From: a virus
Taxonomy: Duplodnaviria; Caudoviricetes
Reading direction: 5' to 3' (one strand)
Length of the DNA stretch: 41,837 nt
Virus record (IMG/VR): IMGVR_UViG_3300017965_000005
Coordinates: 1 to 41,837 of that record
Of this stretch, positions 10,172 through 41,837 are shown in pieces. The notes beneath the pieces were generated by a model, which searched no databases, was not told where the DNA came from, and saw only the letters and a list, made by a program, of their open reading frames with translations. How positions within the stretch are numbered: position 1 is the first letter of the stretch; each line of letters starts with the position of its first letter. A program made the position numbers and the translations under genes.

Positions 10172-10738
10172 TCAACATGGCAATGGCGCCGGGGCAGGAG
10201 TGCTCCGGCGGAAAGGAGTGACATGGAAGTTTTTCTGATGGAAGACCTGGACCTTGAAGCTGTCATCGAGGCGGCGGTCGACGATGCGCCGTCGCCGATC
10301 GTCGGTGAGCACGTCATGCGAATCGTCAACAAGGCTCTTGCGGCGGAGCGAGCCAGCATTCGGCGGGAGCTGTACGACTGGCTGGTCGGCGACATCGATC
10401 CGCGGGACGCGGGCCTTTACAACTCTCGGCGCATCGTCGACGAGATCAATCGCATCTGCCCGAAGGAGGGATAACTCATGGGATTCTTTCGCACCCTGCT
10501 CCGCATGGAACCCCCTCGTCCTACAGCCCTGGAGCTGGCCGAGGCAAACGAGATGCGCCTGAAGAACGCCAAAGAGGCCGCTGCCTGGGAGCGGCAGCGA
10601 CTGATCGTCGAGTGGCTGGTGTCTCGCGCTGGTGCCACGGGAATCGACGAAGACACGAAAGCAACCCTCTTTGTCATCGCCCGCCTGATCGAGGATGGCG
10701 AGCCGCTCAAGGCGGCTCGCCCTAAAGGGCGTTCTCAT
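10172..10738 (-). CDS. Bridge ORF 1 (188 aa), antisense to two + genes
   Basis: ATG overlaps upstream stop (ATGA); stop overlaps ATG of an 8-aa mini-ORF (10172-10146) whose TAA overlaps the next ATG. Confidence 0.4.
   Translation of the reverse strand: MRTPFRASRLERLAILDQAGDDKEGCFRVFVDSRGTSARHQPLDDQSLPLPGSGLFGVLQAHLVCLGQLQGCRTRGFHAEQGAKESHELSLLRADAIDLVDDAPRVVKARVPRIDVADQPVVQLPPNAGSLRRKSLVDDSHDVLTDDRRRRIVDRRLDDSFKVQVFHQKNFHVTPFRRSTPAPAPLPC
10223..10474 (+). CDS. Hypothetical early-type protein, antisense within late operon
   Basis: SD AAAGGAG; helical protein-like sequence. Confidence 0.75.
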   Translation: MEVFLMEDLDLEAVIEAAVDDAPSPIVGEHVMRIVNKALAAERASIRRELYDWLVGDIDPRDAGLYNSRRIVDEINRICPKEG

Positions 10739-10759
10739 GGTCGGTTGAATGCGAAGTAG
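10478..10759 (+). CDS. Hypothetical early-type protein, antisense within late operon
   Basis: SD AAGGAGG; AAAWERQRLIVEWL..IARLIE pattern; 25-nt tail overlap with gene 10735..11172. Confidence 0.75.
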   Translation: MGFFRTLLRMEPPRPTALELAEANEMRLKNAKEAAAWERQRLIVEWLVSRAGATGIDEDTKATLFVIARLIEDGEPLKAARPKGRSHGRLNAK

Positions 10760-25799: not shown

Positions 25800-26451
25800 A
25801 ATTCACCATCCAGAAGGAGGATGAATGTTCAAAGCACTGGATCTGTTCTGTTGTGCTGGCGGAGCCTCGGAGGGCCTCCGCCGCGCAGGCTTCGAAGTGA
25901 CCGGCGTCGACATCCGGCCGCAGCCCCACTACTGCGGGGACACCTTCGTGCAAGCCGACGCCCTGGAGTTTCCACTGGAAGGGTACGATCTCATCTGGGC
26001 GAGCCCTCCGTGCCAGGCATTCACGGCCTACAAACGACGACCATCCCATGTCGCGCCGTGCCAGAACCTGATCCCGGCGGTGCGGGAGCGCCTCGCTGGT
26101 TTGCCCGCGTTGACGATCATCGAGAACGTCCCTGGAGCACCGCTGCGCCGCAACTTGATGCTCTGCGGATCGATGTTCGATCTGAGCGTTCGCCGCCACC
26201 GCCTCTTCGAGCTCAGCTTCGAAGCCATCCAACCGACGTGTCGGCACCAGGATCAGGCGCCGCGATTCCCGCCGGCCTCGAACCGTCACAGCCTCCGGCG
26301 TACGGTCGAGGTAGGTGTCTGGAGGATTCCCCTGGAGGTACAGCGGGCCGCCATGGGGATCGACTGGATGACCCGCGAAGAGCTCTCGCAGGCCATCCCG
26401 CCCGCCTACAGCGAGCACATCGGTCGATGCGCCATGGCGGCTCTTGATCAC
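25792..26451 (-). CDS. Bridge ORF 4 (219 aa), antisense to the methyltransferase
   Basis: SD GGAGGT 8 nt before GTG overlapping upstream stop (GTGA); stop overlaps adaptor ATG (ATGGCTGA). Confidence 0.5.
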   Translation of the reverse strand: MIKSRHGASTDVLAVGGRDGLRELFAGHPVDPHGGPLYLQGNPPDTYLDRTPEAVTVRGRRESRRLILVPTRRLDGFEAELEEAVAANAQIEHRSAEHQVAAQRCSRDVLDDRQRGQTSEALPHRRDQVLARRDMGWSSFVGRECLARRARPDEIVPFQWKLQGVGLHEGVPAVVGLRPDVDAGHFEACAAEALRGSASTTEQIQCFEHSSSFWMVNYG

Positions 26452-26469
26452 CGGCCAGGACCTCCGTAG
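25825..26469 (+). CDS. Short DNA (cytosine-5) methyltransferase
   Basis: Motif I DLFCCAGG, IV WASPPCQ, VI IIENV, X-like QAIPPAYSEHIG; SD AAGGAGG. Confidence 0.88.
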   Translation: MFKALDLFCCAGGASEGLRRAGFEVTGVDIRPQPHYCGDTFVQADALEFPLEGYDLIWASPPCQAFTAYKRRPSHVAPCQNLIPAVRERLAGLPALTIIENVPGAPLRRNLMLCGSMFDLSVRRHRLFELSFEAIQPTCRHQDQAPRFPPASNRHSLRRTVEVGVWRIPLEVQRAAMGIDWMTREELSQAIPPAYSEHIGRCAMAALDHRPGPP

Positions 26470-36769: not shown

Positions 36770-36991
36770 ATGGAGACCAAGCAGTGCAACAAGTGCAAGG
36801 AGTTCAAGGCGTTGCTTTTCTTCGGAAAGAGAAGGGCCAAGAAGGACGGTCTTTACGAGACTTGCAGGGATTGCATGAAGGACGTTCCGAGCAGGGTATC
36901 GGCGATGAATCGCAACAAGCTCAAGTCGCTGATCAAGAGGCGCGACATGATGGGCGCTCAACGCTGGAAAGATGGTGGCGGCGGCGCCTGA
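36770..36991 (+). CDS. Cys4 zinc-finger protein (73 aa)
   Basis: SD AAGGAGG; KQCNKC..F..KDGL..CRDC, like N-terminal Zn domains of phage HNH/EndoVII proteins but no nuclease domain. Confidence 0.75.
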   Translation: METKQCNKCKEFKALLFFGKRRAKKDGLYETCRDCMKDVPSRVSAMNRNKLKSLIKRRDMMGAQRWKDGGGGA

Positions 36992-37003
36992 AGCGCCCGC
37001 CGC

Positions 37004-37162
37004 TCAGGGCCAGGAGACGCCGTGGCCCGAGAAGACGAAGCAGAGAACGAGCGCGCCACAAAAGAACAGGATGCAACCGACCTCGGCTGCCTTGGGGTTC
37101 GCGGCCAGGGCGTAGGTGACGAGACCAACGATGGCGACGAGCATGGGGATGATGGCGGTCAT
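37004..37162 (-). CDS. 52-aa two-TM membrane protein, antisense in early region
   Basis: MTAIIPMLVAIVGLVTYALA-ANPKAAE-VGCILFFCGALVLCFVF. Confidence 0.65.
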   Translation of the reverse strand: MTAIIPMLVAIVGLVTYALAANPKAAEVGCILFFCGALVLCFVFSGHGVSWP

Positions 37163-37194
37163 GCCGCCTGGACACCTGCAAAAAGGAGACCAAG

Positions 37195-37917
37195 ATGAAG
37201 AGAAGTGAGTTCGAATCCAAGGTCCGTAGCTGCACGGCAGAGCCCTGGACGGACACATCATACGGAGCCGATCAAGTCCTTGCTCTGGTCGCTCAAGTCG
37301 GTGTCACCTGGGACCCGGAGGAGCCGGAAGCGCTGTGGGAAGCTCCAGAAACCGTGGATGTATATGCCACCCGAATACTCATTGACGGGACCATCGAATA
37401 CCTTTCTTCGCTTAGGGGATGGCTGCCCATGGATTGCCCGACTACTCGCGAGCTTGCCCGCCGACTCCTCGCTGAGCGGGCGGAGAAGGCGAAGCAGGAT
37501 GTCATGCAGCACAGCGTCCTGGCCGGACTCGCCGCCGACAAGGATCACGTCACGGACGGCAGCTCCTGCTGGTGCAATCCGGTTACGGAGAAACCGGGGA
37601 TCGAAGATGTCCCGGACGGCGATATGGCGGCGGTTTCGGGGACCGCCGCCTGGATCGAGAGGGAGAGGGCGTGCCGGGACCTGGACGGAGAAGTTCGGAG
37701 CGAGGAGGCTGCCGGTCGCCGCCGGATCGCGAAAATACTCAAGGCCAGCAGGTCGTCGTACTGGTACGCGAGACACATCGGGAAGGTGTTCGAGGTCGAG
37801 TTAGTGGAGGCGGAGGGGTTATTCAAGGGGAGTGCGCGCGTTGCCGGTTATTGTGGCGGTCACTATGTTCAACCCGAGGACATGGAGTACCTGGAATTCC
37901 TGGATCTAGGCTCTTGA
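37195..37917 (+). CDS. Hypothetical mosaic protein (240 aa)
   Basis: SD AAAGGAG; domain shared with 8016..8906; H..CWCNP motif. Confidence 0.8.
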   Translation: MKRSEFESKVRSCTAEPWTDTSYGADQVLALVAQVGVTWDPEEPEALWEAPETVDVYATRILIDGTIEYLSSLRGWLPMDCPTTRELARRLLAERAEKAKQDVMQHSVLAGLAADKDHVTDGSSCWCNPVTEKPGIEDVPDGDMAAVSGTAAWIERERACRDLDGEVRSEEAAGRRRIAKILKASRSSYWYARHIGKVFEVELVEAEGLFKGSARVAGYCGGHYVQPEDMEYLEFLDLGS

Positions 37918-37943
37918 CATTCTAGGATCTCTCATCCTAGAAT
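37914..37943 (+). promoter_or_regulatory. Near-consensus sigma70 promoter with overlapping operator
   Basis: TTGACA-18-TAGAAT; perfect inverted repeat ATTCTAGGAT-N5-ATCCTAGAAT at 37919-37943. Confidence 0.8.
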
Positions 37944-37947
37944 TGTT

Positions 37948-38330
37948 GTTGGAGGCGGACGGGTTGAAAGCCGAAGCTGCTTGCCAGTCAAAAGATCGGC
38001 AACCATCCAACCCGGAAGCCCTGAGGCGTACGACCAGGGCGCCGCCTCCAACTCCTTGGATCGCAGGATTGCATCCTGCCAGGAAACGACAGCGCGGTAA
38101 GGGGACAGGGGCTCCAGTCCCCCTTCGGCCACCGGGAAAAAGCGCATATGCGGCGAGATCGTCGGCCCCACGACGCGACCCGCGAAAACCAAGACTTGTA
38201 TCGGCGAGGTGGCATTTCTGGCAGGATGGAGTCCTGCGGAGATCGACCGGCCGCAGCCGAGGCCGGCGAAGATCCGGTACAGCGAGCAACGGGAAGTCCC
38301 GCAAGCCGGGTGGCCCCGCCGATACGGGGC
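37948..38330 (+). ncRNA. Candidate large structured RNA/leader B (~380 nt)
   Basis: Starts at predicted TSS; 11-bp closing helix, ~23-bp long-range helix with G-U pairs, possible kissing loop and pseudoknots. Confidence 0.6.
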
Positions 38331-38353
38331 ATTCAATGACGAAAGGAGACCAG

Positions 38354-38668
38354 ATGAGTGAAGTGCGGAAGATGAGGCGGAGGCTCATGAACATGAGCAC
38401 AGGCGGGTATCCGATGGGGCCGGCTTCTCCGGAGGTGTTCAACGACATGCGGCGCCAGAACTTCGCCGAGGAGCTGGTGAAGCTGGGGATCGAAGAGCTG
38501 AGCTACGAAAGCTTCAGCGACACCCACAAAGAGGTCAAGCACGAGGGCAAGGAATACTTCGACACGGAGCCGACTCTGACCCTGGAGGGGTGGTTCCTGG
38601 CGATGACGAAGGCGGCCAAGGCCGCGGCCGAGGAGATGTACCCCGAGCTGCCTGAGGAGGAAGCCTGA
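38354..38668 (+). CDS. Hypothetical protein (104 aa)
   Basis: SD AAAGGAG before ATG 38354; TGATG coupling to next gene. Confidence 0.75.
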   Translation: MSEVRKMRRRLMNMSTGGYPMGPASPEVFNDMRRQNFAEELVKLGIEELSYESFSDTHKEVKHEGKEYFDTEPTLTLEGWFLAMTKAAKAAAEEMYPELPEEEA

Positions 38669-38970
38669 TGCCCAGGAAGCCGAAGGACGAAGAGACCGCC
38701 GTCAAGCCCGGCGCGCGGAGCCCGAAGCTCCGCGTCGCCATCCCACTTTCTCCGGAGGCTACGGCCGAGGTCCGGTCGAAGGCCTCCGTCTACCGCGGCC
38801 AGCTCACCCAGGAGGGGTTCATCGCTCTGATCGGTCTCGAGATCGAGAACCGCCTGCCGGTCATTCTGCGCCAGATCATCGCGAGCCTCGAAGCCGATCG
38901 CCGGCAGAGGTTGGGCCTGGAGCCGCCGCCGGTCGCCGTCGAGGCGGTCAGGACCGAGGACGAAGTCTGA
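38668..38970 (+). CDS. Hypothetical, possibly DNA-binding protein (100 aa)
   Basis: SD GAGGAGG; TGATG coupling at both ends. Confidence 0.7.
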   Translation: MPRKPKDEETAVKPGARSPKLRVAIPLSPEATAEVRSKASVYRGQLTQEGFIALIGLEIENRLPVILRQIIASLEADRRQRLGLEPPPVAVEAVRTEDEV

Positions 38971-39221
38971 TGGCGGCCTCGAGGTTTCGGCCTCCGAAGA
39001 GCTGGACGCCGGCAGTGACGAGCCAGCCGGCTGCTGGTTGCGGCATTCGCAGCGGGGTCAACTTCAAGAAGGAAAAAGAGGAGGCCCCGGCCCTGCGCGT
39101 CTCTCGCACCGGCATCTGCAACAAACCGCGCAAGCAGAGGGAGGCCTTGCGCAAGGAACGTAAGGCGGACCCGAACGGTTTCGGGGTGCATTCCTGGCGT
39201 CGGAGGCAGTGGGTCGCGTGA
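38970..39221 (+). CDS. Basic hypothetical protein (83 aa)
   Basis: Coupled at both ends. Confidence 0.55.
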   Translation: MAASRFRPPKSWTPAVTSQPAAGCGIRSGVNFKKEKEEAPALRVSRTGICNKPRKQREALRKERKADPNGFGVHSWRRRQWVA

Positions 39222-39454
39222 GAGAGCTGGATTGGGGGCGGGCGATGCGGATGCTCAAGGCGTCCTCCGGCCTCTCGCAGGCCGAGCTCGCCGCGAAGGC
39301 CGGCATCTCCCCCTCCCACCTGGCAGAGATCCGGGCCGGTCGCCGCACCAGGGGCGGCCGGCAGTCCCATCCCTCGATCGACACCCTACTCCACCTCGCC
39401 GAGGCGGGCGAGGTGGAGGTCTCCACGATTATTTCCTGGGCGGAGGGGTCATGA
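39218..39454 (+). CDS. XRE/Cro-family HTH regulator
   Basis: GLSQAELAAKAGISPSHLAEIRAG..PSIDTLLHLA; GTGA coupling, SD GGAGG. Confidence 0.85.
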   Translation: MRELDWGRAMRMLKASSGLSQAELAAKAGISPSHLAEIRAGRRTRGGRQSHPSIDTLLHLAEAGEVEVSTIISWAEGS

Positions 39455-39618: not shown

Positions 39619-40034
39619 AAATCACAGATCTGGAAGAGCTGCTGATGGAGATTCACGGGCTTCGCGGCGACCTGGATCGCGAGACGAAGCTGCGAAGGAA
39701 GGCGGAGGCCGGGTGGGCGGCCATGTGTGAGCTGCTCGGGGAGCGGATGAAGGTCGAGGAGGAGCGCTGTCACTTCCAGATCAGGGTCACGGCGGAGGCA
39801 GTCCTCTCCGATTGCCTGCTGCTTGTGGCCGATACCAACCTCGGCCAGCTTGAGGAGCACCTCGCGGAGACACTGGCGCGCGCCATCTTCCTCCAGCTCC
39901 GCGCCGGCCGTGAGGGCCGGCTCTCCTTTGAGCGCGCGGCGGTTCCCAGGATGCTCCGGGAGATTCCGGTACCGGATTTCCCGAGACCTAGGATGACAGG
40001 TCCGGAGATTCCCGGAGCGGAGACCCTAGAATGA
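39615..40034 (+). CDS. Hypothetical protein (139 aa)
   Basis: SD GAGGAGG; TTGA coupling. Confidence 0.7.
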   Translation: MKITDLEELLMEIHGLRGDLDRETKLRRKAEAGWAAMCELLGERMKVEEERCHFQIRVTAEAVLSDCLLLVADTNLGQLEEHLAETLARAIFLQLRAGREGRLSFERAAVPRMLREIPVPDFPRPRMTGPEIPGAETLE

Positions 40035-40252
40035 GTGGATTCTGCGACTCCCTTCGCGACGGCTTGAAGACCAGGATGGGCATATGTCCAACCTGTGGGG
40101 TCGGCGACATGCACCAGAGGGAGATGGCGCGGCTACTCAACGTGTCTCCTGCAATCCTCAGCAGGTTCCTCGGAGGCAAGGCGCCATCGGCAATGCTGGT
40201 TGACCGCCTCGTAGAGTATCTGGAGATTCTCGGAACGGAGACCCCAGAATGA
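40031..40252 (+). CDS. HTH regulator with N-terminal CxxC
   Basis: HQREMARLLNVSPAILSRFLGGKAPS; ATGA coupling. Confidence 0.75.
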   Translation: MSGFCDSLRDGLKTRMGICPTCGVGDMHQREMARLLNVSPAILSRFLGGKAPSAMLVDRLVEYLEILGTETPE

Positions 40253-40422
40253 CTGCCAAGAACCGCCTGGTCCGCGTCGTGGCGGCCTACGGACCATCCG
40301 AGCGCGAGACGTGGGAAACTCTCTGGTTCGGATACGAAGACACCTTGCCGGCGGCAAGAGTGCCGTCTCCCCTGCTTGTTCCAGCCAATGAGAAATTCCA
40401 CTTGATGATAGTGCCCTACTAG
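40249..40422 (+). CDS. 57-aa hypothetical protein (not in ORF track)
   Basis: Hand-translated MTAKNRLVRVVAAY..; ATGA overlap, SD GGAG. Confidence 0.55.
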   Translation: MTAKNRLVRVVAAYGPSERETWETLWFGYEDTLPAARVPSPLLVPANEKFHLMIVPY

Positions 40423-40816
40423 GGCCAGGACGCCACCAGAGGGCACCTGAGCCACGAACGCCTACCACCCCTCCCTACCTCACGAGCCCGCCCCTCCGAT
40501 CCCCGTAAAAGCCAGCTTAGCGCGAAACAGGCCCATACAGGCCGCCGGCGCCTGAAGCGCCCGGCGGCTGAGTCCTGTCCCTCTGCTACCGCCTCGTCAT
40601 TGTCCTCTTTGGGCTACGACATGCCTGAGCGACCCGCATATTGAAAGCGGGGACTCCCCCCTCTCCGCCGCCACCCGCCCTCGACCGGCATACCCCCCCC
40701 TTACACACAGGTGTGCTTGAATAACTCTATGGCTTTGTAGGAAAGACATGGTGCTCATGCAGTGAGCATGACTTGAATAATAGTTGAACTAGGGGGAGGC
40801 CATAGAGGGGAAGAGG

Positions 40817-40887
40817 GGATGGGTCAGAGATTGACCCACTACAGAGGGGAGGGCGGTGGTGTGGTGGATGGGTCAAAGATTGACCCA
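40817..40887. repeat. Two copies of a 22-bp palindromic repeat GGATGGGTCA(G/A)AGATTGACCCA
   Basis: 40817-40838 and 40866-40887, one mismatch, each TGGGTCA-N5-TGACCCA. Confidence 0.85.
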
Positions 40888-41635
40888 TGGGTGGGACAAA
40901 ATGTCGCAGCCTCTCTGGTGTGCTGGTGCTGTAGTACACCGAGCTGCTCCTTCCCCTCCTCCCTCCTCTCCCCCTTCCGGGTTCAACCATTCCTCAACTC
41001 CTGCGCAGTGAGTGGGTATCCGGGTAAGATCGTTGAATCTCGTTGGCTCCGTGGTATTGCGTTCCTCTGTCGCACGTGCGACACTCATCTTGTCAGGGGC
41101 GGGGGAGGGCGGGCGGGGCGGCGGTGACGGGTTGACATGGAGAGCGAAGGGCGGGAGCGGACCGGGCGCGAGAGCGCAGAGGTCCGCAAGCCTCCCGAGG
41201 TGCTCCGCGAGCTTCGGCCCGCGTCCGGTTGTTTCGGTTCCTGCCGGGGCGTGTGTGGTGCGTGGTTCCCTGGCACGGGGCGGTTCTGGTCTATGCGCGT
41301 TCCTCACTGCGCGGGCGCTCAGGCGCCGCGCAGGAGAGCACGAAAGGCGGGACGGAGCGGCGGGTCTCCCCGGTAAGAGTGGAGCGAGTTGTCCAAGCGG
41401 CAGCGACTCCCCAGGACGGCAGGAGCCGAGTGCATCCCTCTCCGGAGGCTTGCATCCTGCTACTTCTTTCCGGCGCGAGTCCCCTTGACCGGGGCGTTGT
41501 CAAGTGCCAGTAAAACCGCGACAGTGCGTAAGGGTGTGTGGAGGGGTGAGCGGCGACCGGTTGATTCCAGGTCACAAAGAAGAGGCGGCAGGATGGAACC
41601 CTCCGGACCAAACCTCAACAGAAAGGAACCCTCTC

Positions 41636-41837
41636 ATGTCAGTCCCTCGCGATATCTATCTAACCTTCCCCTCGCCCCGTACGGCTCTTTCGGCAATGCG
41701 TCGACTCAGGGAAGTCCGCCCCAACGCCAGGGTACTCCGTGATCCCGGCTCCAGCATTCTTCGGATCTCCCGCACCTGGGAGCCCGCATCCCACTACACC
41801 GAAGTCCTCGGATGCGCCGCACCTGTCGTGCGGGTCG
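41636..41837 (+). CDS. 5' part of hypothetical protein running off the window end
   Basis: SD GAAAGGA; MSVPRDIYLTFPSPR.. open to the end. Confidence 0.6.
   Translation, partial: MSVPRDIYLTFPSPRTALSAMRRLREVRPNARVLRDPGSSILRISRTWEPASHYTEVLGCAAPVVRV

Follow-up and report, generated by a model that had tools for sequence, protein, structure and literature searches.

A modular leader of a phage early operon with a long helix as a candidate RNase III processing site

Long RNA helices serve as processing signals in several early phage transcripts. RNase III sites are present in the transcripts of phages lambda and T7, and cleavage at such sites relieves occluded ribosome-binding sites, as stated in the available parts of two works (PMC5371410, PMC8708148). 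The leaders of lambda N and cIII, the early T7 sites of the R1.1 type and the Escherichia coli adhE leader, as they appear in the same excerpts, are the described systems closest to the locus presented here. The likeness lies in a long helix within an early-operon leader behind a repressible promoter, and in a candidate occlusion of the Shine-Dalgarno sequence (SD) which would be relieved by cutting. The lambda and T7 sites are simple hairpins, whereas the helix here closes a branched interior of 129 nt with several hairpins, and its cleavage is a prediction. Moreover, this helix occurs twice in the genome with a common core, has palindromic arms and stands behind a separate conserved 5′ junction.

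The nut/boxB hairpin of phage lambda together with the N protein forms an early antitermination system. Another structured RNA of this kind of position is the put RNA of phage HK022, which is made first from an early promoter (PMC9378689, in the part available). Such systems resemble the present leader in having a structured RNA at an early promoter; in addition, a hairpin stem of this leader is reminiscent of boxB, and an Arg-rich N-terminus is encoded by the first gene. The likeness is one of features, and there are differences: the leader here has a three-way junction and an 11-nt loop, the family of the first gene also occurs leaderless (in the distant phage G403), and its protein belongs to no known family.

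Two further types of element have to be considered. REPINs, as presented by Bertels and Rainey in the available part of PMC3337134, consist of inverted imperfect palindromes with a spacer of 110–130 nt and are patchily present among relatives, and all these traits are found in the present element. It differs from them in lying in a phage, in only two copies and in reversed orientation, in the absence of a second hairpin, in a spacer that folds as several hairpins and not as one, and in that no RAYT protein was found among those scanned. The minimal subtype of the raiA motif RNA (RF03072) resembles the 5′ domain of the leader in length (about 105–113 nt), in paired 5′ and 3′ ends, and in a 5′ GAAAG-type and a 3′ ACCAGG motif. 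The differences are the lack of P4 and of PK2, the competing strong helices, a score within the range of chance and a motif that is not kept in a relative.

Layout and folding of the leader

The window analysed here is the whole virus record of 41,837 bases, the completeness of which is estimated at 53%. The genome encodes terminase, portal, capsid, DnaB helicase, a Cas4-like nuclease and a methyltransferase, as found by a protein family scan (the capsid by fold). On the + strand, the leader is preceded by a 240-aa ORF that ends at 37917 and followed by several small genes, two of which encode helix-turn-helix (HTH) proteins (Table 1). The region is a leader of about 405 nt, which extends from a sigma-70 promoter with a palindromic operator to the gene that opens a phage early operon. 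The consensus promoter with its palindrome and the SD near 38343, both named in a preliminary description of this DNA, are present; of the two HTH regulators which that description assigned to the operon, one is a firm family match and the other only a match below the cut-off. Transcription is expected to start at about 37949–37951. The palindrome is likely the operator, judging by its position and symmetry, and may double as a terminator for the upstream gene. It appears terminator-like in the terminator prediction, which found no terminator between the leader RNA and the first gene. The protein of the first gene gave no Pfam, PHROG or Atlas match; at least 16 small phage proteins, divergent from one another, make up its family. 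Their N-terminus is rich in Arg, a C-terminal YPE motif is conserved, and in two phages the protein is encoded by the first gene behind the early promoter.

Table 1. Features of the leader, of the genes that follow it and of the related downstream element
Feature	Position	Strand	Description
Sigma-70-type promoter, TTGACA-18-TAGAAT	37914–37943	+	11 of 12 consensus positions; 0.6 expected in shuffles
Promoter palindrome	37919–37943	strandless	10-bp arms, 5-nt spacer; spans promoter spacer and −10
Domain 1	37948–38052	+	predicted to form a three-way junction, with P1 as the closing helix
Exchangeable inner arm of domain 1	37963–38011	+	49 nt here, 70 nt in the relative
Domain 1 3′ hairpin	38018–38040	+	6 bp, 11-nt loop; in the part kept in the relative
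CUCCUU tail	38052–38057	+	complementary to SD 38343–48; candidate anti-SD; kept in the relative
Domain 2	38062–38238	+	accessory cassette within a closing helix of 24 positions; missing in the relative
Left arm of long helix	38062–38085	+	itself a 17-nt palindrome, REP-like
Right arm of long helix	38215–38238	+	itself a 17-nt palindrome, REP-like
Open frame	38101–38361	+	weak coding signature, no in-frame ATG; stop overlaps start of next gene
Hairpin before SD	38313–38330	+	6 bp; in the stretch kept in the relative
First operon gene	38354–38668	+	104 aa, no known family, Arg-rich N-terminus; SD 38343–48
HTH gene 1	39209–39454		Pfam HTH_3, E 9.6e-9
HTH gene 2	40031–40252		HTH match below cut-off
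Second cassette	41441–41607	+	related helix 41441–68/41580–607; 29 nt before an SD-led ATG at 41636

The whole region folds more stably than its shuffled versions (z −4.35), none of 100 shuffles being equally good. Domain 1 reaches z −5.0 on the + strand and −5.26 on the − strand, domain 2 −4.28 and −3.18, respectively, and the stretch 38243–38335 only −1.84. For calibration, 379 genome windows of 190 nt were each compared with 10 shuffles, which gave a mean z of −0.85 (sd 1.35). The three calibration windows in the leader have z of −2.7, −3.8 and −3.3, and the best of them ranks 15 of 379. The folding signal of the leader is strong against the genome's own background, yet not unique.

All eight complementarities named in the preliminary description exist where it placed them. 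In the ensemble, the pairing probability is near 1 for P1, for 37960–66/38008–14, for 38018–23/38035–40 and for the long helix. A further stem proposed within domain 1 (37970–74/37996–38000) did not survive, with a probability of 0.01 and two other hairpins preferred in its place. P1 has 11 bp, or 8 bp if transcription starts at 37951, and it would pair the very 5′ end of the transcript, given the expected start. The Rfam scan suggested earlier as a check yielded no match at gathering score and no credible match for the leader up to E 10, and ARAGORN reported no tRNA or tmRNA gene in it. CsrA sponges, 6S RNA, pRNA, tRNA-like, hammerhead and bridge RNAs were dropped by eye, as their hallmark motifs are missing.

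Modules gained and lost among relatives

A contig found in two runs (X2 and X3) of one independent study is collinear with 37000–39447 of the window. The comparison rests on this one close relative from one study, with the differences in short pieces counted rather than placed; a further run of the comparison (X4) does not reach the RNA region. Three stretches are kept in the relative: 37873–37962 with 5 differences, 38012–38058 with 3 differences in 47 nt, and 38301–38970. Between them, 37963–38011 (49 nt) is swapped for 70 nt and 38059–38300 (242 nt) for 88 nt. The relative therefore retains the promoter, both arms of P1 and the 3′ hairpin of domain 1, and it also retains the HTH gene. The breakpoints within domain 1 (37962/38012) flank one predicted pair, G37962–C38012, as is expected if the outer part of the helix is real and the arm exchangeable. 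This placement is the best comparative support for domain 1 as predicted. A strong SD and an ATG directly after domain 1 of the relative are in frame with 38302–38361, which suggests an ORF of about 42 aa there, 58 of the 88 letters being unseen. Downstream of the leader, the 83-aa ORF 38970–39221 is cleanly absent from the relative (joint 38970–39218) and constitutes a further accessory module.

In the distant phage G403, the same two genes follow a sigma-70 promoter with palindromes. Nothing in that phage matches the leader RNA, and its four weak blastn matches are due to chance. Thus, promoter and first genes are constant and the leader varies in length, from about 405 nt here, through domain 1 plus 88 nt in X2/X3, to 19 nt between the −10 box and the ATG in G403. 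To all appearances, the leader is accessory cargo in a conserved slot between promoter and gene, and it is, as far as these sequences tell, modular rather than one conserved 380-nt unit or one integrated riboswitch.

The search for further homologues of the leader covered several collections. Comparison by blastn with 50,697 phage records gave no real homologue. Pattern searches of viral contigs gave 2, 47, 0 and 1 loci, and those examined are unrelated and mostly coding. Scans that started from the proteins, over viral, metagenome and genome collections, returned only the record itself and one distant relative, and a profile of the first-gene family gave no match over 401 genomes of one phylum. 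No second copy of domain 1 was found by a single-sequence model applied to the window, six loci, G403 and 151 genomes, and six supplementary files of PMC10690425 contained no catalogue match for the leader.

The long helix of domain 2 and its possible processing

The helix that closes domain 2 had been described as having about 23 bp with two G-U pairs. The helix and both G-U pairs hold; of its 24 positions, 21 are Watson-Crick, 2 are G-U and one is a G-G mismatch. The two G-U pairs favour an RNA of the + strand. No other long-range inverted repeat of the genome scores as high (19, against maxima of 9–14 in 12 shuffled genomes). Each arm is also able to fold alone, as had been claimed, into self-hairpins of −8.5 and −8.8 kcal/mol.

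A related helix closes the second cassette, which precedes an ORF from 41636 that runs off the end of the record. A pattern derived from the arms matches exactly four sites, namely both arms as well as 41443–61 and 41587–605, and none further at two mismatches; the four matches are circular evidence, the absence of other sites is not. The pair 41443–61/41587–605 is the second-best long-range helix of the genome, although its score alone is within the shuffle range (13 against 9–14; z −2.2). Both helices lie upstream of an SD on the + strand, have a common core with the G-G mismatch at the same position, and differ by a compensatory exchange of an outer pair. In the second copy, the self-hairpins have decayed to −2.6 and −2.1 kcal/mol. 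The loss of the self-hairpins with retention of the long-range pairing favours the long helix, rather than the palindromes, as the conserved feature. The motif common to both interiors is weak, being equalled in 77 of 5000 shuffles and exceeded in score by at least 12 of 796 genome windows.

With a probability of roughly 0.5, the region would be a modular early leader in which the 24-bp helix is a site of the host RNase III that trims the mRNA and releases the cassette. The proposed mechanism would proceed in five steps. First, a repressor bound to the palindrome 37919–43 would gate the promoter. Second, domain 1 would fold, pairing and so shielding the 5′ end of the transcript, and its conserved junction and hairpin would probably be contacted by a protein or by the polymerase. 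Third, translation of gene 38354 would be damped through pairing of its SD with the CUCCUU tail. Fourth, once the right arm is made, each arm would leave its own hairpin for the long helix, and RNase III would cut both strands, which separates the tail from the SD and frees a cassette of about 150 nt. Fifth, translation could be coupled by a short upstream ORF whose end lies on the start codon of gene 38354; such an ORF is clear in the relative and doubtful here.

The helix has the length of about two turns that RNase III substrates have, with 24 positions, 23 of them paired at a probability near 1. The arms hold no clear match to the proximal box as preferred by the Aquifex enzyme (PMC3074117, in its available part). 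Verified E. coli RNase III sites also depart from the consensus, according to the sections available of PMC5371410 and PMC8708148. The odd-centred palindromes of the arms would not be explained by the two-fold geometry of RNase III.

The accessibility of the SD was predicted for several forms of the RNA. With domain 1 present and 3′ ends up to 38400, the SD is unpaired with a probability of 0.04–0.41, compared with 0.83–0.89 for an RNA starting at 38243; a cut in the middle of the helix gives 0.26–0.63, which is a modest gain. The gain vanishes in RNAs that reach 38420, all of which leave the SD open (about 0.8). The pairing probability of the tail itself varies from 0.02 to 0.54, depending on context. 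Such predictions support a damping role of the CUCCUU tail only weakly.

The short upstream ORF of the fifth step would correspond here to the end of the frame 38101–38361. Its codon score of −0.09 is equalled by none of 114 off-frame controls and by 36 of 2000 shuffles, and the frame is likely a remnant or a short upstream ORF. No homologue was found among proteins of 30–46 aa, and no Pfam family. The right arm of the long helix and the interior overlap this weakly coding-like frame.

If the RNase III reading is true, it adds an uncatalogued 5′ junction RNA, and helix-clamped modules come and go while the promoter and the first gene stay in place, one genome using the same clamp twice. The locus would then be a small, testable system for how phages add control at the RNA level or RNA cargo. 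A more far-reaching and rather unlikely extension is that the shared helix cuts interchangeable RNA cassettes from two early transcripts, and that the cassettes and domain 1 are undescribed trans-acting sRNAs which act on the host.

The main rival of the RNase III reading, though an unlikely one, derives domain 2 and the copy at 41441–41607 from a REP doublet (REPIN-like) of the host chromosome; the helix would be a by-product and domain 1 the only functional RNA. This would fit arms that are each palindromic and inverted to one another, and an element that is absent from the relative. A 19-nt core also agrees at 18 of 19 positions with a repeat of a Bryobacteraceae genome (G001), the pattern of which has 34 copies there and none in the controls, once as a classical doublet. 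In that genome the repeat forms a two-hairpin REP-like family, the 34 copies being those found by one pattern. A second hairpin follows the palindrome at all 11 of its loci examined and is missing in the phage, and the single full doublet is oriented in the opposite way. Reversed doublets with A/T runs inside are known, according to the part of PMC3337134 available. An exact match occurs in 5 of 301 genomes of that phylum, in 4 of them once, and a palindrome with 7-bp arms may well meet some REP family by chance among 185,579 genomes; six of seven loci in the initial genome search are about the chance level (estimate about 4). Further points against such an origin are that the phage proteins scanned include no RAYT family and that no target-site duplication is seen. 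The inverted palindromic REPs of a REPIN are present, and its single-hairpin spacer is absent, the interior being multibranched. Were this origin true, host repeat DNA would have entered the phage and been co-opted in its leaders.

Less probable readings and further elements of the genome

A low probability is given to the view, put forward in the preliminary description, that all 380 nt form a single stand-alone ncRNA or a ligand- or protein-sensing switch whose pseudoknots open or close the SD. The structured, promoter-proximal nature of the region stands, and the region has its own promoter, a z of −4.35 and arms that can each fold alone during transcription. Pseudoknots and the loop-loop kiss are outside the scope of the folding model and were judged as plain complementarities only. 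As such, the 9-bp complementarity arises in 83 of 3000 shuffles, the 7-bp one in 1033 of 3000, and the kissing loops match over 5 bp. What is not supported is the single RNA of about 380 nt and the pseudoknot switch, because the relative lacks 38059–38300, and with it domain 2, the two kissing loops and the 5′ partner of each pseudoknot, and keeps the 3′ partners, so the pseudoknot pairing is not conserved. Single modules could act on their own after processing. The lack of a terminator before the first gene, of an Rfam family and of any homologue found, as well as the distant G403 with no leader at all, speak against it too. Considered as a new riboswitch class, the region keeps the frame of domain 1 and the anti-SD in the relative, which is one relative only.

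The arms could also act as DNA. Palindromes of 17 bp with an odd centre suit HTH dimers, and in this scenario, likewise improbable, the four 17-bp palindromes are operators for a phage HTH protein, paired for looping, and the RNA helix is incidental. Four related sites lie in two intergenic regions with a fifth, perfect one at 2490–2506; the pattern count is 6 against 1.07 expected; AGGAT is common to these sites and the promoter palindrome; and two HTH genes follow. However, the spacer is 3 nt and not the 5 nt of the promoter palindrome, the complementarity extends at least 7 nt past the palindromes, and the second pair has retained the pairing with decayed symmetry. The site at 2490–2506 lies within coding sequence, and the relative retains the HTH gene without these sites. 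This site is a perfect 17-nt palindrome of left-arm half-sites inside the Cas4-like gene.

Domain 1 as a minimal phage-borne raiA motif RNA (RF03072) is very unlikely. The alignment to RF03072 is end to end, with the 5′ and 3′ motifs in place, and scores 13.6 bits (E 0.72 over all Rfam families, E 0.0092 for RF03072 alone). A natural minimal raiA of 113 nt exists (PMC12968392, in the part available), and short collinear motif matches are seen by eye against the 5′ parts of alignment rows in the available part of PMC10861870. However, the cut-off of the family is 101.3 bits, and chance matches in coding DNA score 18.7–21.8. The chained conserved blocks amount to 11 of 44, which 53 of 83,674 genome positions equal; the pairing probability of P1c is 0.0, P4 and PK2 cannot form, and PK1 is ambiguous. 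The raiA-like letters are also the part replaced in the relative. The resemblance is weak and failed a fair test by score, block chain, pairing and relative; a literature search brought up no phage-borne raiA.

Very remote is the option of an invertible segment with the arms as its recombination sites: palindromic inverted sites do surround 110–130 nt and TTGAC motifs occur in the second element, yet the central bases of the two sites differ and no recombinase family is among the proteins scanned (record estimated at 53% complete). The contigs of run X1, from which the window itself may derive, show no joint in the region, a check which rare inversions could escape.

Scarcely credible, finally, is the region as coding sequence for the N-terminus of a 241-aa protein starting at 37943, the frame of which is open over 37910–38668, given that its 5′ 137 codons score −0.38 against +0.28 for 38354–38668 in a codon model of the phage, that GC is flat by codon position, that the start falls inside the −10 box, that promoter and gene lie closer together in the relative (net −133 nt), and that no member of the 21-row family alignment (one 1459-aa repeat match left out) reaches further than about 15 aa upstream of the 38354 start. 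The homologues begin at this start in 6 of 7 candidates of a length-limited search and in 16 proteins of a search without length limit. Translation and conservation of this ORF, which the preliminary description had named as evidence against a structured RNA, is therefore not supported by codon score, net deletion or family start.

Several other elements were observed in the genome. The lowest folding z (−5.4 and −6.5) belongs to 40700–41030, where a long inverted repeat (40760–822/40949–41010) is accompanied by two copies of a 22-nt palindrome (40817–38 and 40866–87); the region has no Rfam match, and an origin or regulatory region is suggested. A 31-nt repeat with 90% identity (187–217 and 615–644) has a GC hairpin before and an SD after each copy and is a repeated leader motif. 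A 24-nt repeat with 92% identity (36979–37002 and 40543–40566) lies just past gene ends as a possible terminator or processing signal. A 37-nt repeat with 86% identity (40001–40037 and 40219–40255) covers the starts of two small genes, and part of it resembles half of the promoter palindrome. Finally, + strand genes are inserted at 25825–26469 and 10223–10759 against the direction of the structural operon, one of them encoding a C-5 methyltransferase.
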